Shown here: positions 11,883 through 64,000 of the stretch, piece after piece | Position numbering within the stretch: position 1 is the stretch's first letter | How the letters are laid out: every line of letters starts with the position of its first letter | Assembly: GCA_035570235.1 (NCBI GenBank) | Contig: DATMML010000037.1 | Location: forward strand, 152,426-216,425 | Direction: 5' to 3' | DNA length: 64,000 bases | From: Vicinamibacteria bacterium | GTDB lineage: Bacteria > Acidobacteriota > Vicinamibacteria > Fen-336 | Position numbers and translations under genes: made by a program | Notes under the pieces: generated by a model | The model's database searches: none | Seen by the model: the letters and a program-made list of their open reading frames with translations, nothing else | Told to the model about the DNA's origin: nothing

Positions 11883-11888
11883 ACCGGT

Positions 11889-12839
11889 CTATTCTCCGGG
11901 TGCCAGAGGAGGGGAGCGGCCCAGGAACTCCACCAGGAGGCGCGCTACCTCCGCCGGACGCTCCTCCTGGGGAAGATGCCCACAGTCCTCAAGGAGCACC
12001 ACACGCGAGCCGGAGATGGCCCGCGCGAACCGATCGGCGTCCGGGGGTGGGATCCAGGCGTCGTACCGGCCCCACAGAATGAGGGTCGGGGCCTGGACCC
12101 GGGGGGCGAGCTCGGCCACCGCCCCCGGATGGAGGCGAAGCGTGGCTAAGAGGGACCGGGTGGCGGCGGGGGCCCCCGGCCGCAGCATGGGGGCCGCGTA
12201 CTCCTCCAGCCGCTCCGGGGTCACGAGGGCGCGGTCGTGGAAAACCTGGCGGAGGGCCGCCCCTACCAGGAGCCGCCGCACCGGGAGGTGGTCGATGAGC
12301 GCCGCCATCGGCCGGAAGCCCGCGACCCGGATCAGGAAGGGCCGGTCCCGCGCGGCCAGGTTGAAGCCCGCGGCGTCGATGAGGACGAGGCGGCCCACCC
12401 GCGAGGGATCGGTGGCCGCGAGCACCACCGCCAGCGCCCCCCCCATGCTGTTGCCCACGAGGTCGGCCCGGGCAATCCCCAGACGGTCGAGGAGGGCCCG
12501 GACCACGCGGGGGTACAACTCGAACGAGAGGTCGGCGGGCAGGTCGGAACCGCCGAAGCCGGGCAGGTCGAGGGCCACCACGTCATGGCCCTCACTAAGG
12601 GTGGGAAGGACATCCTTCCAGGTGTAGATCGAGGAGGCAAAGCCGTGCAGGAGCACGACCGCGGGGCCCCGGCCCGCACGCACGTAGCGGACGCGCAAAC
12701 CCTCCACCGTCTCGTAGCGCGGGGTGAGGCCGGAGTTCTGCAGCCAGGCCCCGGTCGGCCCCGGCGGAGCTTCGCCCCGCAGCACGAGGCCGATGAGGGC
12801 GGCCGTCACGACCCCGATCACGAAGAGGGCGCGACGCAC
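11889..12839 (-). CDS. alpha/beta hydrolase fold protein
   Basis: VVLLHGF...GNSMGG nucleophile elbow; GTG start chosen after a GGAGAG RBS (ORF track extends further 5'). Confidence 0.7.
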   Translation of the reverse strand: MRRALFVIGVVTAALIGLVLRGEAPPGPTGAWLQNSGLTPRYETVEGLRVRYVRAGRGPAVVLLHGFASSIYTWKDVLPTLSEGHDVVALDLPGFGGSDLPADLSFELYPRVVRALLDRLGIARADLVGNSMGGALAVVLAATDPSRVGRLVLIDAAGFNLAARDRPFLIRVAGFRPMAALIDHLPVRRLLVGAALRQVFHDRALVTPERLEEYAAPMLRPGAPAATRSLLATLRLHPGAVAELAPRVQAPTLILWGRYDAWIPPPDADRFARAISGSRVVLLEDCGHLPQEERPAEVARLLVEFLGRSPPLAPGE

Positions 12840-12891
12840 GCTTCTCTCCTCACCACCAGAGCCGCCCCATCCACCGCCTTGGCGTCGGCCG

Positions 12892-13455
12892 CTATTCGAA
12901 GCAGGCCACGAGGAGCGCTTTGCCCCTCCCGGTCTTGTTCTCCGGGCGGCATGACTTGCCCGATTCGGCGCAGCACCAGCAGGCATCCATCGCCTCGCCC
13001 GTGCCGCCGCTCGGGATCACCGAGTCCGTGACGGGACCGGCGTCGGGCTTGCCGCAGGCGCCACCCACCTCGGGAGCGGTCCGCAGCACCACCCGCGAGT
13101 CCGTCATGTTCAGGTAGAGGGGGGTCGAGGCGCTGCCCGGGAAAGCGACCGCGGTGACCCTCTTATCGTTGGCGTCGATCGGACGGTAGATGACGACCAT
13201 GGAGCTGCCCGGCTTGAAGCGCGCCACCTCGGCCACGACCGCAGGCTCGAAGCTCCAGGCCAACTTCTCGCCACTGTTGGACTTCATCACCACGCGGTTC
13301 AGAGCGGGGTCGACGCTCTCCAGCGTCCCGTAGACACTCTTGTGGGGTCGGGGCGGGCCGGCGGTCATCTGCGCCCAAGACCGAGGCGCCATGGCCACGA
13401 GCGCGAGCGGCAGAACGGCTAGCCCCCGAGCGCGAGCGGACCCTAATGAGCCCAT
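12892..13455 (-). CDS. secreted hypothetical protein with C-terminal Cys-rich motif
   Basis: Signal peptide (…SWAQ); C-terminal ACGKP...DACWCCAESGKSC...ACFE cysteine cluster. Confidence 0.45.
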   Translation of the reverse strand: MGSLGSARARGLAVLPLALVAMAPRSWAQMTAGPPRPHKSVYGTLESVDPALNRVVMKSNSGEKLAWSFEPAVVAEVARFKPGSSMVVIYRPIDANDKRVTAVAFPGSASTPLYLNMTDSRVVLRTAPEVGGACGKPDAGPVTDSVIPSGGTGEAMDACWCCAESGKSCRPENKTGRGKALLVACFE

Positions 13456-13599
13456 CTTGTCCTCCCTGGTGAGTCACCGTCCGGGCGCCCACCGACACGA
13501 GACGGTACCATCGAACCAACCTGGGGCAGAACGCCCCCCGACTCGGCCACCCCGCCAGACGATCTCCCGACCGCGGTCACCCCGGAATCTCGTGGAGCC

Positions 13600-14364
13600 T
13601 CAACCCCCGAGCAAGCGCCTGAGCTCGGGCAGGGCCTTGGTGACGGCCTCCTCCCCCGCCGCGAAGAAGCTCGGGATCTTCCGCGGGCGCATCCAGCCCG
13701 AGTCGCCCATGGCGGGGGCGATCACGAGGTCCGCGCCCTGCAGCTCGCTGCGCGTCCGGCCCCGCAGGAGGGTGAGGCCCGCCCGGAGGGCCAGGGCCAC
13801 GAAGGAGTCGGCGGCCGGCCAGCGGGTCCCGCTGTTCACGTCCACCGCCACCACCACCCCCGTCTCCTCCGCCATCTCCCGGGCCAGGCGGACGGGGACC
13901 ACCTCCGAGATGCCGCCGTCGTAGAGCCGGCGGCCATTCAGGACCATGGGCGGGAAGACGCCGGGGAAGCTGCACGACGCTCGCACCGCGTCGCGCAGGT
14001 CGCCCTCGCGCAGCACCACCGGCTCGCCGGTGTCGACGTCGGTGGCGAGAACGCGCACGGGCACCCGCAGGCCCTCGAAGGTGGGGACGGGCAGGAACTC
14101 GTCGATCAAGACCCCGAGCTTGGTGCCGGAAAGCAGCCCGCCCCCCCAGCCCCGCACCCACATCCAGGGATGAAGCCGGGAGGCCTGCTCCACGAGCTTC
14201 TCGAGGTCGGCCCCTCCCGCCCAGGCGGCCGCCACCAGGGCCCCCCCGCTCACGCCGGCAATGCCCGCCGCCGGCATTCCCTCGCGGTCGAGGGCGTGCA
14301 GCACTCCGGCATGGGCCGCCCCGTGGGCGCCCCCGCCCGAGAGCGCGAGATAAAGAGGCTTCAT
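13600..14364 (-). CDS. patatin-like phospholipase
   Basis: GGGAHGAAHAG oxyanion motif, GVSGG nucleophile elbow and DGG catalytic Asp. Confidence 0.75.
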   Translation of the reverse strand: MKPLYLALSGGGAHGAAHAGVLHALDREGMPAAGIAGVSGGALVAAAWAGGADLEKLVEQASRLHPWMWVRGWGGGLLSGTKLGVLIDEFLPVPTFEGLRVPVRVLATDVDTGEPVVLREGDLRDAVRASCSFPGVFPPMVLNGRRLYDGGISEVVPVRLAREMAEETGVVVAVDVNSGTRWPAADSFVALALRAGLTLLRGRTRSELQGADLVIAPAMGDSGWMRPRKIPSFFAAGEEAVTKALPELRRLLGG

Positions 14365-50856: not shown

Positions 50857-50887
50857 GAAAATGAAATTGAAATTCAATTTCATTATG
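50857..50887. promoter_or_regulatory. Fur-box-like AT-rich palindrome (TGAAATTGAA-A-TTCAATTTCA) overlapping the start codon of the cytochrome c/FTR1 gene
   Basis: Perfect 10-1-10 palindrome of GAAAAT/GAAATT hexamers (consensus Fur hexamer GATAAT) in an otherwise 70% GC context. Confidence 0.5.
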
Positions 50888-52801
50888 TCCCTCGTCCTCC
50901 TGGCCAGCGGCCTCCTGGCCGCTTGCGCGGGGGCGCCCGCGGCCCCCCAAGCGCCCGCCGCGGACGGGGGCGACGGCCAGCGCCTGGTCGCTCTCCTCGA
51001 CTACATCAGCGGCGACTACCGGCGCGCGGTCCGCGGCCGGCAGGTCCTGGTGGTGAGCGAGTACGAGGAGCAGATCCGGTTCGCGGGCGAGGCCCGCGGA
51101 CTGGCTCGCGGCCTCCTGGGCCCCTCCTCCTCCCCGGACGATCCCCTCCTGACCGGGCTCGCCGAGGTGGAGGCCCAGGTCCGGGCGAAGGCGGAGCCGG
51201 AAGCAGTGGCGGAGGTCTGCCGGTCGGCGCGCGAGCAGGCGGTGGCGCGCTTCAGCCTCCGCACCATGCCCGTCGAGCGGCCCTCCCTCCCCCGCGCCCA
51301 GCGCCTCTACGCCGAGTCCTGCACCCCCTGCCACGGCGCGCAGGGGAACGCCGACACCGAGCGGGCCCGTTCCTTCAACCCTCCCCCCGCGCGCTTCCGC
51401 GACCCCTCCCGCCTGGGCGAGATGTCTCCCTACCGGATCTACAACGCGCTCACCTTCGGCGTCCCCGGCACGGCCATGGCCTCCTTCGACAGCCTGTCCC
51501 CCGCCGACCGCTGGAGCCTGGCCTTCTACGTCTTCCGGCTGGGGCACGAGGGCGAGAGGGCGGGAGCCCCCGTGGCCATGACCCTGGCCGACATGGCCGG
51601 CCGCTCCGACCTCGAGATCGCCGCCGGCCTTAAGGCCGAGAAGCACCCCGACCCCGACGGTGCGCTCGTCTACCTGCGGCGCGAGGCGGCCTTCACGGAG
51701 GCGCCGGCGGGGGTCGGGATCGACCGCACGCGGGAGATGGCCCGGCAGGCGGTGCGCCTGTACACCCAGGGGCGGGCGCGCGAGGCGGACCGCCTGGCCC
51801 TCGACGCCTACCTGCAGGGCTTCGAGCCGCTGGAGATGCGCCTGCGGGCCCGGGACGCCGCGGGCACGCTCCAGGTGGAGACCGGCTTCCGCGACCTTAG
51901 GGCCTCGATGGTTCAGGGGGAGACCGCCGATCGTGTGCGGGCCCGGGGCCAGGCCCTGGATGGCCGGCTGGCCTGGCTGGGGGAGGGAGGGCGGCGGCCC
52001 CTCGTCCCCCTGGCCGCGGGCTTCCTGATCTACTTCCGGGAGGGCGTCGAGGCCGCGCTCCTCGTGGGCGCTCTCCTGGCCGGCCTCAGGCGCCTCGGCC
52101 GCCCCGAGGCCGCGCGGTACCTCCACGCGGGCTGGCTTCTGGCCCTGCCCGCGGGCGTGGTCACCTGGTGGGTCTTCGACCGCGCCATCTCCCTGGGCTC
52201 GAGCCAGCGCGAGCTGATGGAGGCGCTCGTCGCCCTCCTGGCCGCGGCCGTGCTCTTCTCGGTGAGCTTCTGGATGATCTCCAAGGCGGAGTCCCGCCAC
52301 TGGATGGGCTACCTCAAGCAGAAGCTCGAGGCGGGGCTCTCCCGCCGCAGCCTCCTCGTCCTCTCCGGCCTGGCTTTCCTAGCCGTCTATCGGGAGGCCG
52401 CCGAGACCATCCTCTTCACTCAGGCCCTGCTCCTGGAGTCGGAGCTCCATCGGGCCGAGGTCTGGACGGGGGCGCTTCTGGGCCTCCTGGCGGTGGTGGT
52501 GGCGGCCGTCCTCATGAACCGCACCGTCCTGCGTCTGCCCCTCGGTCCCTTCTTCGCGGTCTCCAGCCTCCTCCTCTGCGGCCTCGCCATCTCCTTCGCG
52601 GGGACGGGCATCTACCAGCTGGTGGCGACGGGCTACCTGACCCCGCGCCCGGTGCCCTTCCCGGAGGTGCCCTGGATGGGCATCCATCCCGACCTGACCG
52701 GCCTGCTCGTTCAGCTCACGATCCTCCTCATCATCGCGGGGGCGGGGCTCCTCACCCTCCTGCGGCGGCCCCTGGCCCAGTCCGGCGGTCACGCCGCCTG
52801 A
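50861..52801 (+). CDS. cytochrome c / FTR1-family iron permease fusion (lipoprotein signal)
   Basis: MKLKF...LLAACAG lipobox; CTPCHG heme-binding CxxCH; two RExxE motifs (FREGVEA, YREAAET) in a 7-TM FTR1 permease domain. Confidence 0.8.
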   Translation: MKLKFNFIMSLVLLASGLLAACAGAPAAPQAPAADGGDGQRLVALLDYISGDYRRAVRGRQVLVVSEYEEQIRFAGEARGLARGLLGPSSSPDDPLLTGLAEVEAQVRAKAEPEAVAEVCRSAREQAVARFSLRTMPVERPSLPRAQRLYAESCTPCHGAQGNADTERARSFNPPPARFRDPSRLGEMSPYRIYNALTFGVPGTAMASFDSLSPADRWSLAFYVFRLGHEGERAGAPVAMTLADMAGRSDLEIAAGLKAEKHPDPDGALVYLRREAAFTEAPAGVGIDRTREMARQAVRLYTQGRAREADRLALDAYLQGFEPLEMRLRARDAAGTLQVETGFRDLRASMVQGETADRVRARGQALDGRLAWLGEGGRRPLVPLAAGFLIYFREGVEAALLVGALLAGLRRLGRPEAARYLHAGWLLALPAGVVTWWVFDRAISLGSSQRELMEALVALLAAAVLFSVSFWMISKAESRHWMGYLKQKLEAGLSRRSLLVLSGLAFLAVYREAAETILFTQALLLESELHRAEVWTGALLGLLAVVVAAVLMNRTVLRLPLGPFFAVSSLLLCGLAISFAGTGIYQLVATGYLTPRPVPFPEVPWMGIHPDLTGLLVQLTILLIIAGAGLLTLLRRPLAQSGGHAA

Positions 52802-52809
52802 AGCCGACG

Positions 52810-53067
52810 GTGTCCCCGCCCACCCTCACCCTGCTCGGCAGACCGGACTGCCGTCTCTGCCATGAGATGCGGGCGGTGGCGGAGCGGGTGCTCCTCGAGC
52901 CCGCCCGGGTCGTAGAGCGGGACGTCCGCGAGGACCCCGAGCTCGAGAAGCTCTACCGGCTGGAGATTCCGGTGCTGCTTTGGGGAGAGCGGGAGGTCGT
53001 CCGGCACCGCGTGACGGAGGCCGAGCTCCGCGGGCGGCTGCAGGAGCTCGGCTTCGGCCGCCCCTGA
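52810..53067 (+). CDS. glutaredoxin-like small protein (DUF836/YruB-like)
   Basis: LLGRPDCRLCHEM CxxC motif in an 85-aa thioredoxin fold; GTG start 9 nt after the upstream stop. Confidence 0.55.
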   Translation: MSPPTLTLLGRPDCRLCHEMRAVAERVLLEPARVVERDVREDPELEKLYRLEIPVLLWGEREVVRHRVTEAELRGRLQELGFGRP

Positions 53068-53070
53068 GGG

Positions 53071-53110
53071 AAAAAAGACGGCGTGCCCCAGGGGGGCACG
53101 CCGTCTTTGC
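53071..53110. terminator. bidirectional rho-independent terminator (GACGGCGTGCCCC-AGG-GGGGCACGCCGTC flanked by A6 / T3)
   Basis: 13-bp perfect GC-rich stem, 3-nt loop, A-run upstream and T-run downstream; sits between convergent genes. Confidence 0.6.
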
Positions 53111-53130: not shown

Positions 53131-54642
53131 CTACTCGTCGGTGCGGAAGGTGAACACCACCCGCTCGCCGGCTCGGCCGCTCAGGCGGAAGACGACCGCC
53201 TCGCCCGAGATCTCGGCCACGCTTCCGGCCAGGACGCGCAGGCTGCCGGGAACCAGGTTGGCGGTGGCTCCGAGCTCGAAGCGCCACGTCCCGGGCTTTC
53301 CCGCCCCCTGGACGAGCTGGGCCTCGACCCGGTTCTCGCCCCGGCGGCCCGCGGCCAGCGCCGTGGACCCGCCCGGGCCCGCGAACGCCGCGGTCTCGCC
53401 GTTGACCATCACCTGACCGCTCGCTCCCTCGACGTCGAGCTGGCTCGCCCAACCGATCCGGCGGGCGAGGGCGGTCGTGGGTTGGGCGGTCGGGGAAACC
53501 GATGCCAGGCAGGGGGTGTCCTTCGAGACGCCGCTTGCGGCCACGGGGAAGAAGCAGGGCTGGAACGGCATGCGGACCTGGAAGTCCTCGTGGGCGTTGG
53601 GGGCGTTGCCGGGGGTGTTCTGCGTCTCCACCCTCATGCGCACGTCATAGACGAAGGTGATGGTGAAGACGGGCACGAGGTTTCCGCTCGCTCCGATGTT
53701 TCCGTTCGCATGCTGGCCGCCGAAGGGTGTCGTGATCCCGGTGACGGGGGTGAAGGTGATGGGAACGTCGCACTTGCCTCCCAGAGTCGTCGGAAAATTG
53801 GGCGGGGGCGGGATGGGACCGGGAAAGTTCGTCTCCACGTGCAGGTTCACGTCCACGTTGTAGGCGAGCTTGCCTGGTCCCGTGCTCTGGCACATGTCGA
53901 ACTCGACTTGCTGGGCCTGGAAGGGATTGAAGAAGGGCAGGTTGATGGGTGAGCCCTGCTCGACGCCGCCCAAGCGGACATGGAAGGAGGCGTTGAAGGG
54001 CACGGCGGGCAGGGTGGTCGTGGTGGTCGTGGGCAGCGCGGCGGGCGCGGTGGTCGGCGGCGAACCCGCGGTCTGCGTCGGCGAGGGCGAATTGCTGCTG
54101 CGGGTGGCCAGGGCGACGCCGCCCCCCACCACCGCCGCTCCCCCCACCGCCGCCAGCACCGTCGCCGTCCCGATTCCCGCCGCCGCAAACCCCGCGGGCA
54201 CGGCCGGAAACACCGCCCCCGGGGCGCTCGAGGCAAAGGGAGCCACGGGGGTGTCCTTCTGGCACTCGCTCTCGCTCTTCACTACCAGCGCCTCGTTGTC
54301 CACCGTCCGGTTCTCCAGGAACTTCTGGTCGAACGCGTCCACGTAGTACTGAATCTTCTTCCCGATAAGCTCCTTCCTGGGCTTGGGAAGAACCCCCGCG
54401 TGGCAGGGCGCATCCGCCTTCATCTCCACGTAGTACCAGTTCGGCGGTCCCTCCTCCGCCCGGAAGTAGACCCTCGCCCGGGCCACCTGGCCCGCGGGCG
54501 AAAAGCAGGCGTTCATCTTCGGATACTTTTCGGCCACGATGCACCCGATGGCTTTGTGATCGATCGTCAAGCCCTGCGCCCGCAGTGACCCCGGCAACAG
54601 CATCAAGAGCAGCGCGACTCCATTAACGGTGGCTCGCTTCAT
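53131..54642 (-). CDS. secreted paralog 1 of an uncharacterised triplicated family (Cys-containing N-domain, Gly/Ala hydrophobic segment, Thr/Pro linker, two further domains)
   Basis: Signal peptide LLPGSLRAQG; 60-75% identity by eye to the two downstream paralogs across all domains. Confidence 0.6.
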   Translation of the reverse strand: MKRATVNGVALLLMLLPGSLRAQGLTIDHKAIGCIVAEKYPKMNACFSPAGQVARARVYFRAEEGPPNWYYVEMKADAPCHAGVLPKPRKELIGKKIQYYVDAFDQKFLENRTVDNEALVVKSESECQKDTPVAPFASSAPGAVFPAVPAGFAAAGIGTATVLAAVGGAAVVGGGVALATRSSNSPSPTQTAGSPPTTAPAALPTTTTTTLPAVPFNASFHVRLGGVEQGSPINLPFFNPFQAQQVEFDMCQSTGPGKLAYNVDVNLHVETNFPGPIPPPPNFPTTLGGKCDVPITFTPVTGITTPFGGQHANGNIGASGNLVPVFTITFVYDVRMRVETQNTPGNAPNAHEDFQVRMPFQPCFFPVAASGVSKDTPCLASVSPTAQPTTALARRIGWASQLDVEGASGQVMVNGETAAFAGPGGSTALAAGRRGENRVEAQLVQGAGKPGTWRFELGATANLVPGSLRVLAGSVAEISGEAVVFRLSGRAGERVVFTFRTDE

Positions 54643-54763
54643 CGTTTAGCCTCCCCAGGCATCTCGCCGCGACCGGCCAGAGTACGGCGTGGCCGGACCG
54701 GCACGAGGGACTGTGTCTTATACGGGTGTTATAGCACAAAGGCAGGGTGGTCCCTAGGAAATA

Positions 54764-54802
54764 GGAGCGAGCGGCATGCCCCGCAGGGCACGCCGCTCGC
54801 TC
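54764..54802 (-). terminator. GC-rich hairpin (16-bp stem, 1 mismatch) downstream of paralog 2
   Basis: GGAGCGAGCGGCATGCC-CCGCAG-GGCACGCCGCTCGCTC; weak T-tract on the minus strand. Confidence 0.35.
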
Positions 54803-54817
54803 GCGGACCAGTTCTGA

Positions 54818-56248
54818 CTAGTTTGCGGTACGGAAGCTGAATACCACGCGCTCGCCCGGCCGGCCGCTCAGCCGGAAGACGACCGACTCACCCGACAGCA
54901 GGGCCACGTCGCCGGCGAGAACGCGCACGCTTCCCGGCATGACACCGGTCGTCGGCAAGTCGAAGCGCCAGGTGCCCGGCTTCCCCGCCCCCTGCACGAG
55001 CTGGGCTTCGACGCGGTTTTCTCCCACCCGGCCCGTGGCGAGAGAAGTCGACCGGCCGGGGCCCGCGAAGACCGCGGCCGCGCCGTTGATCACCACTTGG
55101 CCCGTGGCTTCCGGCACGTCTAGCTGGCTGGCCCAGACAATACGCCCCGCGGTTGAAGACTGCAGGCCCGAGTTGGACTCGAAGCCGAAGCCGCGGTCCA
55201 TCAGAATATGGACGTCCTGGTGCGCCTTCGGGCTGTTGCCGGGAGTGCCCGCCGTCTCCACCCTCATACGGACATCATAGCTGCCGATGAGGAAGAAGCC
55301 GAGGGAGCCGGAAGGTCTGAGAGCTGAGACTCCGAAGCCCCGGAAGGGTGATGAGATCCCCCGGTCAGTGAAGGTCATTGGAATGTTGCAGAGTCCTCCA
55401 AGCGTGACCGGGAAACCAGGGGGGCCAGGGAACCCCGGGACAGGGGTCTCGCCGACATCTACGTTGAAGGTGAGCGTGCCCGGCCCCGTGCTCTGGCACA
55501 TATCGAACTCGACCTGGGGAGGAACAAAGGGGTTCAGATCCAGGGACGTGCTCGTCTGCACCACCCCGCCCACCTTGACGATGAAGACGGCATTGAAGGG
55601 CACCTGGGGCTGGGTCGTGGTGGTTGTGGTCGGTATGGTCGCCGGTACCGTCGTGGGCGTCGTGACTAAGGGCTGCGTCGTTGGCGGCGGGTTGTTGTTG
55701 CTGCGGGTGGCGAGGGCGACTCCGCCCCCCACCACCGCCGCTCCCCCCACCGCCGCCACCACCGTCGCCGTCCCCACCCCCGCCGCCGCAAACCCCGCCG
55801 GCACGGCCGGGAAGACCGCGGCCGGCGCGCTCGTCGCGAAGGGCGCGACGGGCACGTCCTTCTTGCACTCGGACTCGCTTTTCACCACCAGCGCCTCGTT
55901 GTCCACGGTGCGGTTCTCCGCGAACTTCTGGTCGAAGGCGTTCACGTAGTAGAGGACCTTCTTCCCGATCAGCTGCTTCTTGGGCTTGGGAAGAACCCCT
56001 GCGTGGCAGGGGGCCTCCGACTTCATCTCCACGTAGTACCAGTTCGGCGGCCCGTCCTCCTGCCGGAAGTAGACGCGCGCCCGGGCCAGCTGGCTGGCGG
56101 GAGAAAAGCACGCGTTCAACTTGGGATACTTCTCGGCCACGATGCATCCCACCGGCTTGTGGTCGATGTTCAGCCCTTGGGCCAGAAGAGGGACCGGCAG
56201 CACCAGCAATAGCGACGCGACTCCGCGACGGACGGCTCGCTCCAACAT
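54818..56248 (-). CDS. secreted paralog 2 of the triplicated family
   Basis: ATG start 7 nt after a GGGAGG RBS; same domain order as paralog 1, including the C-terminal β-rich domain. Confidence 0.6.
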   Translation of the reverse strand: MLERAVRRGVASLLLVLPVPLLAQGLNIDHKPVGCIVAEKYPKLNACFSPASQLARARVYFRQEDGPPNWYYVEMKSEAPCHAGVLPKPKKQLIGKKVLYYVNAFDQKFAENRTVDNEALVVKSESECKKDVPVAPFATSAPAAVFPAVPAGFAAAGVGTATVVAAVGGAAVVGGGVALATRSNNNPPPTTQPLVTTPTTVPATIPTTTTTTQPQVPFNAVFIVKVGGVVQTSTSLDLNPFVPPQVEFDMCQSTGPGTLTFNVDVGETPVPGFPGPPGFPVTLGGLCNIPMTFTDRGISSPFRGFGVSALRPSGSLGFFLIGSYDVRMRVETAGTPGNSPKAHQDVHILMDRGFGFESNSGLQSSTAGRIVWASQLDVPEATGQVVINGAAAVFAGPGRSTSLATGRVGENRVEAQLVQGAGKPGTWRFDLPTTGVMPGSVRVLAGDVALLSGESVVFRLSGRPGERVVFSFRTAN

Positions 56249-56422
56249 GAATAGCCTCCCCAGGCTTTGCGCCGCGACCGGACACAAGAAAGCCTTGGCC
56301 GGACCGGCAGGAGGAATCTGTTCCCTAGTGTGCACGCCCCCGATACCACGAATGCGTTGTCGTTCCCGACAAAGAAGCGGGAGCGAACGGACCGGATTCA
56401 AGGGCACGCCGCAGGCCGACAT

Positions 56423-57475
56423 CTAACAGCAGTTCGTATTGAAGAGAATGTGGAAGTCCTGGTGGGCTTTCGGGCTGTTGCCCACCGTACCGGCCGTCTC
56501 CACCCGCATGCGGATGTCATAGCTGCCAATGACGAAGGGAGGCGGGGGAAAGGGCGGCGGGCCGGGGGGGGATGTGAACCCCCGGTCCGTGAAGGCGACG
56601 GGAATGCTGCAGGTCCCTCCCAGCGTGACCGGGAAGCCAGAAACGGGCGGGGAGAACTGAGCCGGGTTGGCCCCGATGTCGAGGTTGAAGGCGAGCTTGC
56701 CCGGGCCCGTGCTCTGGCACATGTTGAACTCGACGATGGGGGGGGTAGAGCAGGCGCACGTGTTCAGCGTGGGGCTCGTCTGAGGTGCCCCGTTCACCCG
56801 GACGATGAAGACGGCGTTGAAGGGTACGGGGGGGGTCGTGGCCGGGGTGGTGGTGGGCGTGGTGATCGGGGTCGTGACGGGCACGGTGGCGGGAATACCC
56901 TGAGTGGTAGGAGTCGGGTTGTTGTTCCCGCTCGACGCGAGCGCCACCCCGCCCCCCACCACCGCCGCTCCCCCCACCACCGCCGCCACCGTCGCCGTCC
57001 CCACTCCCGCCGCCGCAAACCCGGCCGGCATGGCGGGGAAGACGGCGGCGGGGGCGCCCGCCGCGAAGGGCGCGACGGGCAGGTCTTTCCGGCACTCGCC
57101 CTCGCTCTTCACGACCAAGGCCTCGTTGTCCACGGTGCGGTTCTCCGCGAACTTCTGGTCGAACGCGTTCACGTAGTAGAGGACCTTCTTCCCGATCAGC
57201 TGCTTCTTGGGCTTGGGAAGAACCCCTGCGTGGCAGGGGGCCTCCGACTTCATCTCCACGTAGTACCAGTTCGGCGGCCCGTCCGCCTGCCGGAAATAGA
57301 CGCGGGCCCGTGCCAGCTGGCTGGCGGGCGAAAAGCACGCGTTCAACTTGGGATACTTCTCGGCCACGATGCATCCCACCGGTTTGTGGTCGATGTTCAG
57401 CCCTTGGGCGAGAAGAGGGACGGGAAGCACCACCCACAGCAATGCGACTCCGCGACGCACGGCCCGCTCAAACAT
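56423..57475 (-). CDS. secreted paralog 3 of the triplicated family, C-terminally truncated (possible pseudogene or variant)
   Basis: Identical N-terminal half to paralog 2; ends ...HILFNTNCC, lacking the last approx. 125 aa present in paralogs 1 and 2. Confidence 0.5.
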   Translation of the reverse strand: MFERAVRRGVALLWVVLPVPLLAQGLNIDHKPVGCIVAEKYPKLNACFSPASQLARARVYFRQADGPPNWYYVEMKSEAPCHAGVLPKPKKQLIGKKVLYYVNAFDQKFAENRTVDNEALVVKSEGECRKDLPVAPFAAGAPAAVFPAMPAGFAAAGVGTATVAAVVGGAAVVGGGVALASSGNNNPTPTTQGIPATVPVTTPITTPTTTPATTPPVPFNAVFIVRVNGAPQTSPTLNTCACSTPPIVEFNMCQSTGPGKLAFNLDIGANPAQFSPPVSGFPVTLGGTCSIPVAFTDRGFTSPPGPPPFPPPPFVIGSYDIRMRVETAGTVGNSPKAHQDFHILFNTNCC

Positions 57476-57730
57476 GAATAGCCTCCCGAGGCTTTGCGTG
57501 CCGGACACAGGAAGCAGGTGGCCGGACCGGTAGGAGGGATTTCCCGGCGATATTAGCACGAAGGTCAAGCCTCGGTGGCGTGCCCGGCGGGGAAAGGGCG
57601 TCGTTTTCTGTTCTCTCCTTGTCCACTGCGAAGAGAATTTTGGGGCCGGAACCCTATCCGCGGCTCGGGAGGGCGGAGGGTGCGGGCGTGGGGGCGCGGA
57701 GCGGCTCCGGGAGAGCAACCCCCGCGTGAG

Positions 57731-60322
57731 CTAGCGCTCTTTCGCGCTCTCCTCTGCCTCCAGGCGGCGGGCCCAGGGGGTGTCGGAAAACTCCTCCCGC
57801 AAACGCTTTCGATCGGCGTCCGCGCCTTCGGCGTCACCGGCCGCCTCCCGCGCCGCCGCTCCTCCGAACAGGGCCTGGGCCACGTAGGGGCTGGTGGGGG
57901 CCTCGAGCACCAGAGCGGAGAAGGCCTCCGCCGCTTCCCGCGGGTGACCGACTCGGGCCAGGCTCTCCCCGCGCAAGCAGAGCATCTCCGCGCGCAGAGG
58001 CGACCCCCCGGGCGCGAAACTGGCGCCGTGCCGGGCGTACTCCGCAGCCTCTTCGAAATGCTCGGCGGCGTACGCTCTCGACGCGCGTTCGTAGAGGGTC
58101 GTCGGATCCCCCGCCGGATGACGGGGCCCGCTCGCAAACCGGCTGGCCACCAGGAGGAGCAAGAGGCCGCCGGGGACGAGACCGCCCCAGCGGCGGCCGG
58201 GCGAGGGCAGGGCGCACGCCTCCACCGGGTTTGGCCCCGGAGTGGGGCTTGACTCGGAGACCCGCCGCCGGCGCCGCAAGGCCGCGGCCACGACTCCGAG
58301 GGCGATCCCGGAGAGTCCGAGGCCCAGCCAGTCGGCGGCGTTGCGCGAGGGGTAAATGAGCCGCACCGTGCTCTGCCGGGGTATCACCATCATGAGAGCG
58401 GGCGAGATCAGGTAAGGGCCGTCCGCTCCCTCCGCCCGCCAGCGCGGGTGGTAGGAGATCTTCACCAGCAGGGGGTGGCCCGGATGGTCGGTGGTGATGG
58501 TGAGGCCTTCCGCCTCCACCCTCTCCTCCACCTTCACGTCCCCGGGGAGGGGCAGGAGGGGCGGGGCCAGCCACTCATCCTTCTCCACGACCCCGATGCG
58601 GGGGTCATCGGTGAAGACGAGGGGGGCAGGGCTGAGCGGCTTGCGCGTGAACCAGCGGTAGGCCTTGTCCCGCCAATGGGCGGGTGGGGAACGCACGGGC
58701 GCGAAGGGGAGCGGCTCCACGTAGGAGGAGCCGGAGGAGGCCAGATGGAAGATCCGGTAGGGGGGGATGCTGGCCACGCTCATCACGTCGGCCCGGGCGT
58801 CCAGGGCGGAGATGAGCTGGGGCGAGAGGGCCACGACCTCGTTGACGTTGAAGAGCCGCAGGCGGGGAAAGGCGTTCTCGGGATCAAAGTGCGAGTACTC
58901 ACGGCTTCGGAAGGGGTTGGGAGAGCTCGCGAAGAGCTCGGAGGCCAGGTAATAGACGGCGTGGGTCTGGAGGCTGGCCTGGTTGTAGACCCCCTCGAGG
59001 GTGGAGCGGCCGGTGAAGAAGGGCAGGGTCTCGTACATCCGGATGGATCCCGCTTTTTCGTGGGTGGCGCTGTATTCGACGGCCACCCGCGGATCGGCGA
59101 CCGTGCCCTGGAGGCGGTCGGAGAGCTCGCGGAAGGCGGGCCACAGCTCCTTGGCCTCGAGGCCGGTGTAGTTCCAGTCGATCCAGGAGCGCAGTACCTT
59201 CGATTGCCCGTCTACGTGGCAGACGGCGACGAGCACCAGGCCCAGGGCGGCCAGGTCCGGGGCGGACAGGAGGCGGAGGCCGAGGCCGAGGCTGACGCCC
59301 CCCGCCAGGCAAAGCGCGAGGTGGGTGAAGGGGACGAAGCGGACGTCGATGATGCCGAGGGCCGGCCCCGCCGCGGCCAAGGCCGCCCCCACCGCCGCCG
59401 CGTGGATGAGGAACAGCAGCCGGTGGTCGGGCCCCCCGGTACGACGGGCCCAGAGGAGCGTAGACAGGAGGCCGGCTGAGGCGACCACGAAGAGGGGCCA
59501 GAGCAGAAACGGGAAGAGCCCATGGGTGGTGACCGTGATCCAGGGGTCATCGTAGGGCGTGGTCCAGCGCCAATAGAAAAGGAGGGGCACGAGGGTGACG
59601 CCGGCAAGGGCGAAGGCCAGCCCGGCCAGGGCCAGGAGCCAGCGCAGCGTCCGCGCCGGGCGGCGGGCCGCGTAAAGGAAATAGGAAGCGGAGAGGCCGG
59701 CCCAGAGCACGGCGTACCCGTGGGCGAGGGCGGTGAGGGCAAGGAGGAGGGCCGGGACCCAGGGTCCACGGCCATCGGCAAAGCACCGATACGTGCATCC
59801 CAGGAAGAGGACGGCGAGACCGATGCCATACGTATAAGCGAACTCTCCGGTCAGGGTGCTGGCCAGGCTGCCCCCCCAGATCGCGTTCTCCTCCAGGAAG
59901 AGGAACACGAGGGCCCCCGCCGCTCCCAGAAGGGGGGCGGGAAAACCGAAACCCAGGAGCCGGAGCGCGGCGTAGGTCAGCAGAGGCAAGAGGAACACCC
60001 CGAGCACGGTGCCGAGCTTGAAGGCCACGGGCATGCCCGTCAGGGGGGCCAGGCCCGAGATGATGAGGAAGGGAAGGGGAAAGTAGTAGAGAAGGAGCGG
60101 CTGCCCAAGATAGGCCCCGGGATACCAGCCGTGGAGGCGCAGGCTCGGCAGGAGGCGCTCGTGGAACCAGACCGCGGTGGGATAGTGGCAGGGCGTATCA
60201 CCCCCCGCGGCGATGGTGGGCAGGAAGAGCAGCGAGGGTCGGAGGTAGTCCAGGAGCACCAGGAGCAGAACGAGGAGGCCGAGGGCGTCCGCGGTCCGCT
60301 CCCGCCAGCGGGGCAATGACAT
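57731..60322 (-). CDS. large polytopic membrane protein with extracytoplasmic domain and C-terminal TPR-like region (glycosyltransferase-39/ArnT-like or YfhO-like topology)
   Basis: About 12 TM helices at the N-terminus, a 300-aa soluble domain, another TM, then a TPR-like helical tail; family assignment uncertain. Confidence 0.55.
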   Translation of the reverse strand: MSLPRWRERTADALGLLVLLLVLLDYLRPSLLFLPTIAAGGDTPCHYPTAVWFHERLLPSLRLHGWYPGAYLGQPLLLYYFPLPFLIISGLAPLTGMPVAFKLGTVLGVFLLPLLTYAALRLLGFGFPAPLLGAAGALVFLFLEENAIWGGSLASTLTGEFAYTYGIGLAVLFLGCTYRCFADGRGPWVPALLLALTALAHGYAVLWAGLSASYFLYAARRPARTLRWLLALAGLAFALAGVTLVPLLFYWRWTTPYDDPWITVTTHGLFPFLLWPLFVVASAGLLSTLLWARRTGGPDHRLLFLIHAAAVGAALAAAGPALGIIDVRFVPFTHLALCLAGGVSLGLGLRLLSAPDLAALGLVLVAVCHVDGQSKVLRSWIDWNYTGLEAKELWPAFRELSDRLQGTVADPRVAVEYSATHEKAGSIRMYETLPFFTGRSTLEGVYNQASLQTHAVYYLASELFASSPNPFRSREYSHFDPENAFPRLRLFNVNEVVALSPQLISALDARADVMSVASIPPYRIFHLASSGSSYVEPLPFAPVRSPPAHWRDKAYRWFTRKPLSPAPLVFTDDPRIGVVEKDEWLAPPLLPLPGDVKVEERVEAEGLTITTDHPGHPLLVKISYHPRWRAEGADGPYLISPALMMVIPRQSTVRLIYPSRNAADWLGLGLSGIALGVVAAALRRRRRVSESSPTPGPNPVEACALPSPGRRWGGLVPGGLLLLLVASRFASGPRHPAGDPTTLYERASRAYAAEHFEEAAEYARHGASFAPGGSPLRAEMLCLRGESLARVGHPREAAEAFSALVLEAPTSPYVAQALFGGAAAREAAGDAEGADADRKRLREEFSDTPWARRLEAEESAKER

Positions 60323-60444: not shown

Positions 60445-60807
60445 ATGAAGCAGGCGGCCCGCATCCTGATCGTCGACGACGACCCGGAGATCGGCGGGAT
60501 GCTCACGCGCTCTTTGTCCCGTCACGGGTTCCAGATCGACGCCGTGGGCTCGGCAGAAGAAGCCCTCGCGCGCACGGAGACCACCGTTTACGACGCGGCC
60601 TTGGTGGATCTGGTCATGCCCGGCCGCGACGGGGCCGACCTGGCAGCAGCCCTGCGCCGGAAGATCCCCGGCATGCCGATCGGTCTCCTGACCGGCTACA
60701 CCAATTCTCCCCTGATCCCCACCGCCGAGCGCTCCGGCGTGGCCGTCTTCACCAAGCCCGTCATCATCAAGGACCTGGTGGACTTTCTCCGGTCTGAGAT
60801 CACCTAG
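60445..60807 (+). CDS. single-domain response regulator (CheY-like receiver)
   Basis: ILIVDDD...D...LVDLVMPGRDG...FTKP receiver motifs; 120 aa. Confidence 0.8.
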   Translation: MKQAARILIVDDDPEIGGMLTRSLSRHGFQIDAVGSAEEALARTETTVYDAALVDLVMPGRDGADLAAALRRKIPGMPIGLLTGYTNSPLIPTAERSGVAVFTKPVIIKDLVDFLRSEIT

Positions 60808-62149
60808 GGGTCTCGGCCCGCCGATCGCTCCCCCGGCGATGGGCGGCCTCTTGCTTGCGCAGCAGACGCTCCCGCCGGCGCCAGAAGGCCCTGGCCAGGC
60901 GCCGCGATCGCGGGTCCTCCCGCCGTTCCAGGAGGTCGAGGGCGCGGTCCACCACCGAAAGGGCCGCCTCGGGGTCACGCCGGCGGTGCTCATGTTGCAT
61001 GGCCAGCTCGTGCATGGCCAGGGGCTCCCCCGCTTCCGCGGCCGCCGCCCAGAGGCCGGCCGCCTCCTCGAGATCGCCGGCCCGCTTGGCCCGCGCGGCC
61101 AGCCCGAGCAGGGCGGCGGTGCGCAGGGGGCCCGTCCCCTGCGCGGCCGCGCGCCGGTACTCGCTCTCCGAGCGCTCGTAGAGCCGCGCGCGCTCGAGCA
61201 CTCGGGCCAGGCTGTAGACATCGCGCGGGTCCTCGGCCAGGTCCCCCTCCACCCATTGGCAGGCCAGGATGGAGAGCGCGGCCAGGGAAACGATGTCCTG
61301 GCGGTTGTGGGCAAAGACGCGGGCCAAAGCGCGGGCGTCCCGGCGGCGCACGTAATCGAAATAAACCTGGGGAATCTCCTCCCCGGGGATGTCGTCCTCC
61401 CGGTACAGGCCCAGGAGCTCCCTCTCCAGGGACTGTAAGCGGCACGACTCTAGGCGAGCCTTCCACAGCCGGCGGGCGGGGTGCAGAAGGTCCAGGTGGG
61501 GCATCTCGGCCAGGGGGAATCGCCCCCGGTTCAGGCGATAGCGGGCGTCGAGGAGGGGGAGGTCGAACATCTTTCCGTTGAAGGTGACCAGGTGGGAGAA
61601 GCGGCGGAGGTCACTGGCCAGCGCATGCAGGAGGGAGGCTTCCTCGTGGTAGTCGCGCATGAAGTACTGGCGGACGACGAAACGGTCCCCCTCCACGTAG
61701 CCGATTCCGACCAGGAAGGCGGCCGTGCCCGCTCCCCCCGCCAGGCCCGTGGTCTCGGTGTCCAGGAACACGGCGGAGGGGAGATCGAAGGAGGTGAGCT
61801 CCGGCTCCGCGGTGAGGACGCCCACCGTGGCGGGAGCCAGGGAGCGGAAGCGGCTCAAGGGGACCTCTCCCTGTCGGGCCTCGAGGTGGACATCCGCCTC
61901 CATGAGAAAGAACTCCCCCCGCTCGTTCTCGATCCTCATCCCCTGGACCAACTCCTCGAGGGGCACCGCCACCGCCGGCGGGCGCGGACGGGCCCGGTAA
62001 GCGGTGGCCACCAGGCGCTCCAAGCGGGCCTTCAAGGAGCCCTCCCCGGCCTCTCCGAGCAGGGTCTCCTCCAGGGCCTCGAGGGGGACGGGGCCGGGGT
62101 CGCGGCGCAGGCGTCGCAGCCTGTCCTGGAGGGAGGGCGTGCTCAGCAA
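60800..62149 (-). CDS. RNase H-like / DEDD-type exonuclease with C-terminal TPR region (MrfB/YprB-like)
   Basis: VFLDTETTGL exonuclease motif I, later FNGKMFD and H-containing motifs; C-terminal TPR-like helices; located directly downstream of a DUF1998 helicase, as in mrfAB. Confidence 0.6.
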   Translation of the reverse strand: MLSTPSLQDRLRRLRRDPGPVPLEALEETLLGEAGEGSLKARLERLVATAYRARPRPPAVAVPLEELVQGMRIENERGEFFLMEADVHLEARQGEVPLSRFRSLAPATVGVLTAEPELTSFDLPSAVFLDTETTGLAGGAGTAAFLVGIGYVEGDRFVVRQYFMRDYHEEASLLHALASDLRRFSHLVTFNGKMFDLPLLDARYRLNRGRFPLAEMPHLDLLHPARRLWKARLESCRLQSLERELLGLYREDDIPGEEIPQVYFDYVRRRDARALARVFAHNRQDIVSLAALSILACQWVEGDLAEDPRDVYSLARVLERARLYERSESEYRRAAAQGTGPLRTAALLGLAARAKRAGDLEEAAGLWAAAAEAGEPLAMHELAMQHEHRRRDPEAALSVVDRALDLLERREDPRSRRLARAFWRRRERLLRKQEAAHRRGSDRRAETPR

Positions 62150-62313: not shown

Positions 62314-64000
62314 TCATCCGAGGACGGCACCGAGCAGGGCCAGAGCGACCTCCTTGCCCCGGTTGCCGACCTCCCCCGGGGGGCCCACGCAGGATGGGCA
62401 GCCGTCTTGGCAGGGGCAGGAAGCAATAAGCGATCGGCTCTCCCGAAGGAGCCGGTCGTGCAGGCGGTAGAGGGGCTCGGAGAGCCCTATGCCCCCCGGG
62501 TAGTTGTCGTAGAGAAAGACGATGGGCTCGTAGTCGTCGGGCGGGGGCGGCGCCGCGAGTCTCTCCCTCCACCCCTTCTGTATCTGGGCCTCGCCCTGGC
62601 CGTTGTCGCCCAGCGCCACCCCCAGGTCGTGGCGGTCGCACATCAGGAAGAGGGCGGCCATCTGCCCCAGCGTGTGGGAGAGGGCCACCACTCCGTCCCG
62701 CCGGTCCTCCCCCCGGAAGGGCAGCCCGATCAGGACCTCCTTGGGGATGGTCAGCCAGTACGAGGTGGTGTGCATCTCGTTCTCCGGCATCTGGAGGTCC
62801 CCCGCCCCCACGTTCTCGTTGGTGTGGAACTTGATCTTCTTGAAGCCCACTACCTGCGAGGTCACGTGCACCTCGCCGTGGCTGCGGAGGGCGCGGCCGG
62901 CCCCCTCCTCCGCGAAGCGGTCCAGGATCCGCACCTTCGTGTAGGTGATGGCGTCGGTGTAGTAGTCCACCTCCGCCCCCCGCACCTGGGCGCGCCGCTC
63001 TTGGTGGTCGTACTTCTCCACCAGGTAGGTGCGGCCTTCCAGGATGTACACCGCCTTCTCGTGCAGGGTGGCGGGGGCGCTGTCGTAGTCCACCTCCGCG
63101 ATGACCCGGGGGGCTTCCCCCGGGGTGACGTCCTGGATCACGAAGTTGTCGGAGGAGACGCTGCGCAGGCTGATCGCGTCTGCGGGATAGCTCTCGCTCG
63201 TCCAATGCCAGCGGTCCCCCGCCCGGTGCAACAGCCTCTCCTCCTCGAGGAAGCGCAGGATCTCCCCGAGGTCCTCACCCCCGAAGGTCTCCTCCGCGGA
63301 GAAAGGCAGCTCGAAGGCCGCGCACTTGACGTGGTTGACGAGGATCTGCAGGTTGTCCGGATTGATACGACCCTGCTCCACGGGCGCCCCGAAGAAGTAG
63401 TCCGGGTTCTTGGCGATGAACTGGTTGAGGGGGGTCGAGTTCGCGACCAGGACCGCCACCGAGGTGCCGGAGCGACGGCCCGCCCGCCCCGCCTGCTGCC
63501 AGGCCGAGGCCACGCTCCCCGGGTAGCCGAGAAGGACCGCGCAGTCCAGGCTGCCGATGTCGATTCCCAGCTCCAGGGCGTTGGTGGAGACCACCCCCCG
63601 CACCGACCCCTCGCGAAGGCCGCGCTCGATCTCGCGGCGCTTCAAGGGCAAATAGCCGCCCCGATAGCCGCGGATCAGGCCCTCGCTCCCGGGCCTGGTC
63701 TCTAGCGCCTCCTTCAGGTAGGTGACGAGGATCTCGGTGGCCAGGCGCGAGGGGGTGAAGACGATCGTCTGCAGGCCGCGGGACAGGAAGGAGACCGCCA
63801 CGTCGCGCGCGCTGCCCAGGGCCGAGCGGCGGATGCCGAGCTGCCGGTTCACCAGGGGAGGGTTGTAGATCGCGAAGTACTTCTCGCCCTGGGGCGCCCC
63901 GCTCTCGTCGATGAGCGTCATCTCTTGGCCGGTGAGCGCCTCCGCCAGCTCCTTGGGGTTGCCGATGGTGGCCGAGGAGCAGAGGAACTGGGGCTCGGAG
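62314..64000 (-). CDS. DEXH-box helicase with C-terminal DUF1998 zinc domain (MrfA/YprA-like), 5' end outside window
   Basis: Helicase C-terminal motifs (QQAGRAGRR), FLLCSATIGNP-type block continuing in frame through the window end, C-terminal CPCQDGCPSC 4-Cys cluster (DUF1998). Confidence 0.8.
   Translation of the reverse strand, partial: SEPQFLCSSATIGNPKELAEALTGQEMTLIDESGAPQGEKYFAIYNPPLVNRQLGIRRSALGSARDVAVSFLSRGLQTIVFTPSRLATEILVTYLKEALETRPGSEGLIRGYRGGYLPLKRREIERGLREGSVRGVVSTNALELGIDIGSLDCAVLLGYPGSVASAWQQAGRAGRRSGTSVAVLVANSTPLNQFIAKNPDYFFGAPVEQGRINPDNLQILVNHVKCAAFELPFSAEETFGGEDLGEILRFLEEERLLHRAGDRWHWTSESYPADAISLRSVSSDNFVIQDVTPGEAPRVIAEVDYDSAPATLHEKAVYILEGRTYLVEKYDHQERRAQVRGAEVDYYTDAITYTKVRILDRFAEEGAGRALRSHGEVHVTSQVVGFKKIKFHTNENVGAGDLQMPENEMHTTSYWLTIPKEVLIGLPFRGEDRRDGVVALSHTLGQMAALFLMCDRHDLGVALGDNGQGEAQIQKGWRERLAAPPPPDDYEPIVFLYDNYPGGIGLSEPLYRLHDRLLRESRSLIASCPCQDGCPSCVGPPGEVGNRGKEVALALLGAVLG

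Follow-up and report, generated by a model that had tools for sequence, protein, structure and literature searches.

The DNA analyzed here is a 64,000-nucleotide stretch (hereafter the window) of contig DATMML010000037.1 from a Vicinamibacteria bacterium, with a G+C content of ~70%. It contains a tandem array of three paralogous genes, A, B, and C, encoding secreted proteins of an undescribed family. The three genes are arranged head to tail on the minus strand, inside positions 53131–57560, and both the open reading frames (ORFs) and their alignment bear out the original prediction in this respect. Directly upstream on the same strand is a gene for a membrane protein of the Pfam family PF10131 with TPR repeats, and the possible relationship between this protein and the array is the main subject below. 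The coordinates of all features are listed in Table 1.

Gene Structure of the Array

Each of the three proteins begins with a signal peptide and an N-domain of 130 aa that contains four conserved Cys (GCIVAEKYPK.NACFSP, APCHAG, and SEC.KD in the alignment), and continues with a Gly/Ala-rich hydrophobic segment, a Thr/Pro-rich linker, and a Cys-bearing middle domain, as was originally described. The middle domain opens with VPFN...VEFDMCQSTGPG and carries FDMCQSTGPG. Its size is ~135–180 aa, smaller than the 230 aa first estimated. In B and C it is followed by a conserved C-terminal domain of 109 aa. Three proteins of about 480–500 aa with identical domain order had been expected. This is true for B (476 aa) and C (503 aa), which share one architecture, and not for A, which is 350 aa long and lacks the C-terminal domain. 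The protein of gene A ends with ...HILFNTNCC and the stop codon, directly past the middle domain, and no leftover of the missing domain is present in the 174 nt between A and B. The start of gene B corresponds to Met59 of a longer ORF (54818–56422).

Amino-acid identity in the alignment is 70% between C and B and 62% between C and A. At the DNA level, the aligned blocks of the copies are 77–84% identical. The C and B proteins are identical to the NCBI entries HXB54455.1 (VN461_06700) and HXB54456.1 (VN461_06705), respectively, both hypothetical proteins from a Vicinamibacteria metagenome-assembled genome (MAG). A fourth paralog, P0006 (VN461_12300), has the same locus-tag prefix and is located at a different locus.

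Table 1. Positions of the array genes, their parts, and surrounding features in the window
Feature	Position	Strand	Description
Gene C	53131–54642	minus	503 aa; ORF and translation
Gene C, signal peptide	54577–54642		aa 1–22
Gene C, N-terminal Ig-like domain	54187–54576		aa 23–152
Gene C, Gly/Ala-rich hydrophobic segment	54106–54186		aa 153–179
Gene C, Thr/Pro-rich linker	54001–54105		aa 180–214
Gene C, variable middle beta-sandwich	53461–54000		aa 215–394
Gene C, conserved C-terminal beta-sandwich	53134–53460		aa 395–503
Gene B	54818–56248	minus	476 aa; same architecture as C
Gene A	56423–57475	minus	350 aa; start at Met82 of its ORF
Hairpin after gene C	53074–53108		perfect 16-bp GC-rich stem, then TTTTTT on the minus strand
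Hairpin after gene B	54765–54802	minus	17-bp stem, weak T tract
Promoter-like extended -10 box of gene A	57550–57558	minus	TGCTAATAT
Leader of gene A	57476–57560	minus	~75 nt; positions include the -10 box
Homologous leader before B	56249–56333	minus
Homologous leader before C	54643–54727	minus
PF10131/TPR gene	57731–60322	minus	863 aa; directly upstream of the array, same strand
FTR1 iron permease	50870–52801	plus	fused to an N-terminal cytochrome c domain
Glrx-like (DUF836) gene	52807–53067	plus	small protein
HRQ1-type helicase, C-terminal part, and RNase_H_2-superfamily exonuclease-like protein	60800–62149 and 62314–63921	minus	adjacent genes; helicase part with MZB (MrfA Zn-binding) domain

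Conservation of the Array and of the Short Copy

An independent Vicinamibacteria MAG, SMAG_U12937 (locus L005, DATMQU010000333.1), carries the three-gene array with its gene order unchanged. This MAG is the closest species representative in the genome collection searched. In L005, the short copy, which lacks the C-terminal domain there too, comes first and is followed by two full copies. The orthologous pairing between the window and L005 is clear in the C-terminal and middle domains, and the ortholog of B is found at 6408–7823 in L005. The L005 ortholog of the short copy A is 349 aa long and has the same end point. The ratio of nonsynonymous to synonymous substitution rates (dN/dS) between the two is 0.10 in the N-domain and 0.34 in the middle domain. 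Further relatives of 349–350 aa are seen in metagenomes (P0013, P0014, P0016, and P0019). These facts indicate that copy A is a conserved short form under purifying selection and no pseudogene.

Because the same array is present in another Vicinamibacteria MAG, A, B, and C are true diverged paralogs rather than the product of a collapsed or duplicated assembly. Nothing beyond the repeats of the locus speaks for an assembly artefact of one gene or for A as a decaying pseudogene. The copies differ by 16–23% at the DNA level, the array with its short gene and orthologous pairing is found in the independent MAG, and the short form shows low dN/dS against its ortholog and is represented by several metagenome clusters. 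The probability of an artefact or a pseudogene is practically negligible, and the concern that a single gene had been duplicated in assembly is answered by the L005 array and the copy divergence.

Distribution of the Family

None of A, B, and C matches a family in Pfam at E ≤ 1 or any model in PADLOC, and the best NCBIfam hit is a 12.9-bit chance match. A sequence search of PDB with the three proteins gave no usable match. The family is thus unrecognized by these databases, in agreement with the original prediction. In a word-indexed search, 343 relatives were retrieved. They are either unnamed or "hypothetical", and where a source is named, it is Vicinamibacteria. A full HMMER profile search against 1.84 billion cluster representatives detected 2,768 proteins at E ≤ 0.001, 653 of them at E ≤ 1e-30. 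A scan of one genome per GTDB species revealed 35 loci, several genomes having 2–3 of them. The restriction to one lineage, which was to be checked by such searches, is seen here, as the family was found only in Vicinamibacteria/Acidobacteriota MAGs. Tandem pairs or triplets are present in the window and in L005, L007, L013, L022, L023, L028, and L030, and most loci carry one copy. The tandem arrangement is common, and it is not obligatory as had been considered.

The signal peptide and the N-domain are constant in the family, as are the motif VFPxxPAGF, the Gly/Ala segment and Thr-rich linker, the opening part of the middle domain, including its Cys pair, and the C-terminal domain. The motif VFPxxPAGF, ahead of the Gly/Ala segment, is at least 90% conserved across the family. 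Between these constant parts is a region of variable length, which leads to size classes of ~350, 450, and 575 aa. PKD, Big_7, and Flg_new_2 (InlB B-repeat) modules fill this region in the long members.

Predicted Folds

AlphaFold2 models were built from an alignment of 119–120 sequences. In the model of the N-terminal part, the predicted local distance difference test score (pLDDT) is ~95–98 at residues ~25–130 and ~90–93 up to residue 150. This part is modeled as an all-beta sandwich in which the VFPxxPAGF strand is included. The Gly/Ala segment is unstructured in the model, with no helix and a pLDDT of ~36. The middle and C-terminal part (mean pLDDT 83.5) forms two more beta-sandwiches. The modeled domains fall into the Ig-like/FN3-like fold class, which is defined by a two-sheet beta-sandwich of ~100–130 residues with structural similarity to Ig, FN3, and PKD domains. 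All three globular parts are modeled with confidence, as generic Ig/FN3-like beta-sandwiches, in the sense of fold-class similarity and not of family membership.

The proposed fold search on the AlphaFold models returned generic beta-sandwich matches only. The top matches are the Ig-like domain of PPAD and the AGS-C domain of Pycsar, and neither a defence nor a deiminase function is read from this generic likeness. A surface, adhesin, or receptor-like role, as proposed originally, is compatible with three Ig-like beta-sandwiches and with the PKD/Big_7/Flg_new_2 repeats of the longer relatives. The family is a large, undescribed, and lineage-specific one, yet it is built from the most common extracellular fold, and its likely role, at the surface or in the envelope, is ordinary.

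Export, Cysteine Pairs, and Topology

Sec signal peptides with an AxA-type site are found in all paralogs and in distant relatives. No lipobox Cys is present in the signal peptides of the family members. A and B contain RR in the signal peptide. A Tat signal was dropped as a family feature, as C and the distant members have no RR. The predicted secretion is supported by the consensus Sec signal peptides together with covariation of Cys of the disulfide type. Among 237 N-domains, 219 show the Cys pattern CCCC and 16 show CxxC. Cys46 and Cys80 are lost together in these 16 N-domains, which implies the disulfides Cys46–Cys80 and Cys34–Cys127. A metal site composed of the four Cys was rejected in view of the pairwise loss and of the non-conserved adjacent His: of 252 aligned sequences, only 88 have His at the position next to Cys80 on its C-terminal side. 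In the middle domain, Cys251 and Cys291 are both present in 119 of 120 sequences and both gone in the remaining one, and this pair also looks like a disulfide.

The Gly/Ala segment is 27–46 aa long, essentially uncharged, and composed of 33% Ala, 33% Gly, and 14% Val. This composition is kept across the family. There are ~7.6 small-xxx-small motifs per segment. The best 19-residue Kyte–Doolittle window has a mean of 1.9, above the classical transmembrane threshold, and the unweighted sum on the biological (Hessa) scale is ~+2.4 kcal/mol. In the 12 residues past the segment, the value is 0.11 for Lys/Arg versus 0.88 for Asp/Glu. The 45 residues after the segment contain 35% Thr and 16% Pro, like a mucin-type stalk. 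The disulfides on both sides of the segment, the PKD/Big/InlB-type repeats, and the mucin-like stalk indicate that the whole mature chain is probably extracytoplasmic. If both sides of the segment are outside the cytoplasm, it would not be a single crossing of the inner membrane. It could associate with the membrane, form a hairpin, or self-associate in a glycine-zipper-like manner.

The default expectation for a signal peptide plus one later hydrophobic segment is different: a single-pass inner-membrane receptor, with the N-domain in the periplasm, the Gly/Ala segment as the transmembrane helix, and the linker, middle, and C-terminal domains in the cytoplasm. The hydropathy of the best window is in line with it. 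This topology is nevertheless very improbable, considering the conserved co-varying Cys pair in the middle domain, the PKD, Big_7, and InlB-type repeats and the Thr/Pro stalk beyond the segment, and the acidic instead of basic residues that follow it. Furthermore, one third of the segment is Gly, and no helix is seen in the AlphaFold model.

Another alternative is an outer-membrane anchor without a barrel. The N-domain would be periplasmic, oligomerized Gly/Ala helices would cross or be embedded in the membrane, and the glycosylated stalk, the Ig-like modules, and the tip would be displayed. The domain order parallels that of intimin/invasin (periplasmic domain, membrane element, Ig-like repeats, conserved tip), small-xxx-small motifs are abundant in the segment, and the N-domain is under very strong constraint. 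We consider such an anchor improbable, because neither Pfam nor NCBIfam detects a beta-barrel or a known translocator domain, AlphaFold gives no helix for the segment, the short form A has no tip domain, and no precedent was found.

Selection and Possible Recombination

Diversifying selection had been suggested for the array, and it is not demonstrated, since dN/dS is below 1 in every domain. The values are 0.06–0.30 for the N-domain, 0.15–0.29 for the C-terminal domain, 0.25–0.49 for the Gly/Ala segment and linker, and 0.34–0.77 for the middle domain. The middle domain is hypervariable, with many indels and raised synonymous divergence (dS). In B, dS is 0.74 in the middle domain versus 0.32 in the N-domain. 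The middle domain of B (~55145–55600) shows 62.7% DNA identity to that of its L005 ortholog, and the proteins of the genes flanking the array are ~90% identical to their L005 counterparts. Because dS is raised as well and indels are many, the pattern suggests recombination or cassette replacement in this domain. The N-domains of B (55790–56179) and A (57017–57406) are 93.6% identical at the nucleotide level, closer than the N-domain of A and that of its L005 ortholog (89.2%), which hints at gene conversion in the 5' part of A and B.

The PF10131 Protein Upstream of the Array

The 863-aa protein encoded upstream of the array matches PF10131 (PTPS_related) with 106 bits (cutoff 26.4), and a weak TPR_2 match is seen at its C-terminus. 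To our knowledge, no member of PF10131 has been characterized. PF10131 is listed in the clan of glycosyltransferases of the C superfamily (GT-C; CL0111), where it is one of the families closest in similarity to the TMTC O-mannosyltransferases (PMC7801869). The protein encoded at 57731–60322 falls into the GT-C clan by this assignment. It has 14 hydropathy peaks of at least 1.5, some of them overlapping, and Asp42 in the first loop after the first transmembrane (TM) segment, in the sequence AGGDTPCH, is invariant across 25 PF10131 orthologs. The N-terminal module is thereby predicted to be polytopic, with a conserved acidic residue in its first extracytoplasmic loop, as in GT-C enzymes. The hydrophobic core extends to about residue 370. 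Next come a highly conserved soluble domain at residues ~375–660 (~285 aa) and a TM segment, then an RRRRR loop, a further hydrophobic segment, and the TPRs. On the basis of hydropathy and the positive-inside rule, both the large domain and the TPRs are predicted to be periplasmic.

The ortholog group of this protein is conserved across Vicinamibacteria with 63–91% identity, and among the matches listed, the homolog search showed close orthologs only. Three public metagenome proteins (P0338, P0375, and P0365) are apparent fusions of PTPS_related and the N-domain. They were rejected as frameshifted, Arg-rich mis-translations over two adjacent genes.

At ~25 loci, a recurrent gene order is seen: RNase_H_2, a response regulator on the opposite strand, the PF10131/TPR gene, one or more family genes, in some cases the Glrx-like and cytochrome c-FTR1 genes, and pyrF. 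The PF10131/TPR gene is directly upstream of the family gene on the same strand at these ~25 loci, among which N-domain identity goes down to ~50%. The adjacency persists where the downstream Glrx-like and FTR1 genes are missing.

GT-C or glycan genes are also found beside paralogs at other loci. In L011, the family gene directly follows a gene for a 902-aa GT87 protein (38 bits) of the same orientation. In L034, the family gene lies between Wzy_C on its upstream side and a PF10131 paralog (44 bits) on its downstream side. In L032, Wzy_C and a flippase-family protein (Polysacc_synt_3 in Pfam) are encoded beside the family gene, and two neighboring ORFs resemble GT2 glycosyltransferases by eye only. 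The surroundings in L032 and L034 look like a polysaccharide or glycosylation gene cluster. The family members there (7599–8660 in L032 and 1907–2983 in L034) are distant ones with an extra domain of ~140 aa before the N-like domain. In L020, a PMT_2 match is below the threshold.

A second conserved paralog locus, between the arginine decarboxylase gene (speA) and thiI, is seen in L017, L020, and L046. A gene for a DsbA-like thioredoxin is present there, as well as one for an unannotated membrane protein of ~715–730 aa with a weak, non-significant TPR-like C-terminus. The unannotated membrane proteins encoded beside other paralogs, of 714 aa (L017), 512 aa (L007), and 730 aa (L020), showed no significant relation to GT-C enzymes in a phmmer search of PDB or in hhalign against the PF10131 alignment. 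The confirmed GT87 protein likewise fails that comparison, which is thus uninformative.

Possible O-Glycosylation of the Stalk

Our preferred reading is that the members of this family are exported proteins of the envelope or surface, with O-glycans on the Thr-rich stalk that the adjacent PF10131 enzyme possibly adds. This reading is a tentative one, with slightly less than an even chance. The export signals, the fold class, the disulfide covariation, the composition, the synteny, and the selection are shown, and we infer the topology of the segment, the glycosylation, the pairing of enzyme and substrate, and the biological role. The order of the chain would be a Sec signal peptide, a conserved N-terminal Ig-like sandwich, the Gly/Ala/Val segment, the Thr/Pro stalk, a fast-changing middle sandwich, and the C-terminal sandwich. 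Both sides of the Gly/Ala segment would be outside the cytoplasm, and the segment itself would be a membrane-associating or self-associating, glycine-zipper-like element, not a single span. The signal peptide, the Cys covariation on both sides of the segment, and the extracellular-type repeats argue for exposure of such a substrate to the periplasmic face, and the Kyte–Doolittle value of the segment would also fit a transmembrane reading. The Thr-rich stalk, and possibly Ser/Thr of the beta-strands, would be O-glycosylated in the periplasm, and the adjacent GT-C-type membrane protein with TPR repeats is the candidate enzyme. Its action might be akin to that of PMT, TMTC, and TMEM260 on Ser/Thr-rich regions and Ig-like domains. 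It can be speculated that the conserved N- and C-terminal domains dock to conserved envelope partners, and that diversity of surface or ligand comes from the variable middle module and from the presence of multiple paralogs.

Several observations weigh against this reading. No confirmed GT-C gene is adjacent at two other types of paralog loci, the speA/thiI type (L017 and L046) and a type with Gfo/Idh/MocA and response regulator genes (L001 and L006). In L044, a 4.73-Mb Vicinamibacteria contig, the PF10131 ortholog has no adjacent family gene. The whole region, including the housekeeping genes pyrF and pyrD, is syntenic across the class, and inheritance alone may account for the adjacency of PF10131. 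An operon is not required, since every family gene has a promoter of its own. PF10131 could act on a glycan or lipid rather than on protein. Concerning the segment, glycine-zipper models of Pfam gave no match to six isolated Gly/Ala segments at E ≤ 10, and, with its Kyte–Doolittle mean of 1.9, it may be a true transmembrane helix.

The promoters and leaders of the family genes, the class-wide synteny of the flanks with the pyr genes, the L044 case, and the two paralog loci without a confirmed GT-C neighbor are also what favors an alternative. The proteins could be exported Ig-like binding or structural proteins without any functional tie to the GT-C gene, the adjacency being inherited synteny, the linker being unmodified or glycosylated otherwise, and the segment being a flexible spacer. 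This is somewhat unlikely. GT-C genes of three Pfam families (PF10131, GT87, and, weakly, PMT_2) recur at unrelated family loci, and the conservation of VFPxxPAGF and of the segment composition exceeds the needs of a spacer.

A more specific form of the glycosylation reading is unlikely in our estimation. The system could be a bacterial counterpart of the domain-specific O-glycosylation of eukaryotes (TMTC and TMEM260), in which the periplasmic TPR domain of a dedicated GT-C enzyme recognizes the invariant N-terminal Ig-like domain, the stalk or beta-strands are glycosylated, and the Gly/Ala segment tethers or oligomerizes the protein. A literature search on Vicinamibacteria and glycosylation found nothing relevant.

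Promoters, Leaders, and Hairpins

For most family genes, a separate promoter of the sigma-70 type is seen, its extended -10 box being ~75–95 nt upstream, together with a structured leader. The leaders of A, B, and C share a GC-rich hairpin, GCCGGTCCGGC...GTCCGGTCGCGGC, and a small stem, AGCCU-GGGG-AGGCU, which holds the ribosome-binding site. The leader begins with UCCCUCC, complementary to the ribosome-binding site. The same leader type is present upstream in L005 and L002, and at the different-locus paralog L001. Distant orthologs have other leader sequences, in which hairpins are suggested by visual inspection. Rfam and tRNA scans of the window, leaders included, gave no match. The leader may be a shared translational control element.

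The hairpin after C is an intrinsic terminator shared with the convergent Glrx-like gene. The hairpins after C and B have a common core, GGCGTGCCC...GGGCAYGCC, and the terminator was apparently duplicated together with the gene. No strong hairpin is present after A or ahead of the array. The array was first described as lying between two hairpin terminators, and this has to be revised: the hairpins follow C and B. With no hairpin after gene A, a joint transcript of A and B is possible.

Other Neighboring Genes

The array was also linked to an iron-permease locus and placed immediately downstream of it. The two are indeed neighbors. However, the array is convergent with the Glrx-like and FTR1 genes, and its own-strand upstream gene is the PF10131 gene. 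The association with the permease locus is incidental, because the Glrx-like and FTR1 genes are missing at the same slot in seven relatives (L009, L010, L014, L027, L041, L045, and L047). In different Vicinamibacteria, the interval from pyrF to the family gene contains either both the FTR1 and the Glrx-like gene or neither of them, and the gene call in L040 joins the two into a single fused gene.

The helicase and RNase_H_2 pair resembles the MrfA/MrfB DNA-repair pair, and is kept upstream in nearly all relatives. In L044, the slot after the PF10131 gene (10594–14176) is occupied by genes for an unrelated 159-aa secreted protein, an FG-GAP protein, and an ankyrin-repeat protein. This slot appears to be a variable region of the chromosome.

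Comparison with Known Systems

The family is similar to multi-Ig-like surface proteins (Big, PKD, and FN3 adhesins, and the passengers of intimin/invasin) in being exported, with serial beta-sandwiches, variable middle modules, and a conserved terminal domain. Unlike them, its N-terminal, first middle, and C-terminal domains match no Pfam model, and it has no beta-barrel, LPXTG, lipobox, or C-terminal sorting tag. The mid-chain Gly/Ala hydrophobic segment, on the other hand, is missing from those proteins. In inverse autotransporters (intimin/invasin), a 12-stranded barrel occupies the position where the array family has only the 27–46-aa Gly/Ala segment, and Pfam detects no such barrel.

GT-C protein O-mannosyltransferases, the actinobacterial and fungal PMT, act on Ser/Thr-rich linkers. 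The array resembles such systems in that a GT-C/TPR gene adjoins a gene for an exported protein with a Thr-rich linker and Ig-like domains. It differs in that the enzyme here belongs to PF10131 and the putative link is one of gene neighborhood. In eukaryotes, enzymes that combine GT-C and TPR parts glycosylate strands of beta-sandwiches: IPT domains are the targets of TMEM260, and cadherin EC domains those of the TMTCs (PMC10214176; PMC7801869).

Glycine-zipper segments of envelope proteins (SlyB/Rick_17kDa-type 2TM lipoproteins and Gly-zipper_Omp) are also Gly/Ala-rich, uncharged, and hydrophobic, with many small-xxx-small motifs. The array segment differs from them in the lack of a match to a hidden Markov model (E ≤ 10), of a lipobox, and of polar breaks. 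It is placed between two folded exported domains, whereas the segment of the glycine-zipper lipoproteins is near the lipidated N-terminus. In PGF-CTERM and PEP-CTERM, a Pro-containing motif, comparable to PAGF, is likewise followed by a hydrophobic stretch and adjoined by a Thr-rich region. In the array family, however, the element is internal, the Thr-rich region comes after it, there is no basic cluster, and no NCBIfam sorting-signal model matches. The C-terminal sorting tags in general (PEP-CTERM, PGF-CTERM, LPXTG, and the T9SS CTD) do not fit, as the hydrophobic element is at ~153–180 of 503 residues and the C-terminus is a predicted folded beta-sandwich without an NCBIfam or Pfam match. 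Two features of the family are unusual, namely the Gly/Ala segment in mid-chain and the GT-C neighbor that recurs.

Implications

If there is no link to the GT-C gene, the array represents simply a new lineage-specific secreted Ig-like family. If the PF10131/TPR protein glycosylates the family, this would be the first function for a large Pfam family. It would also be a bacterial enzyme–substrate pair analogous to the O-mannosylation of Ig-like domains by TMTC and TMEM260, and the PF10131 gene and its family gene could be a genetically compact model of that process. The Gly/Ala segment, if it acts as proposed, would tether or oligomerize an exported protein from a site between two of its folded domains, in a way not described before.

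In soil, Vicinamibacteria are abundant and for the most part uncultured, and their envelope biology is almost unknown. With thousands of clusters, several paralogs per genome, strong promoters, and no annotation, the family is probably a major envelope component of Vicinamibacteria.

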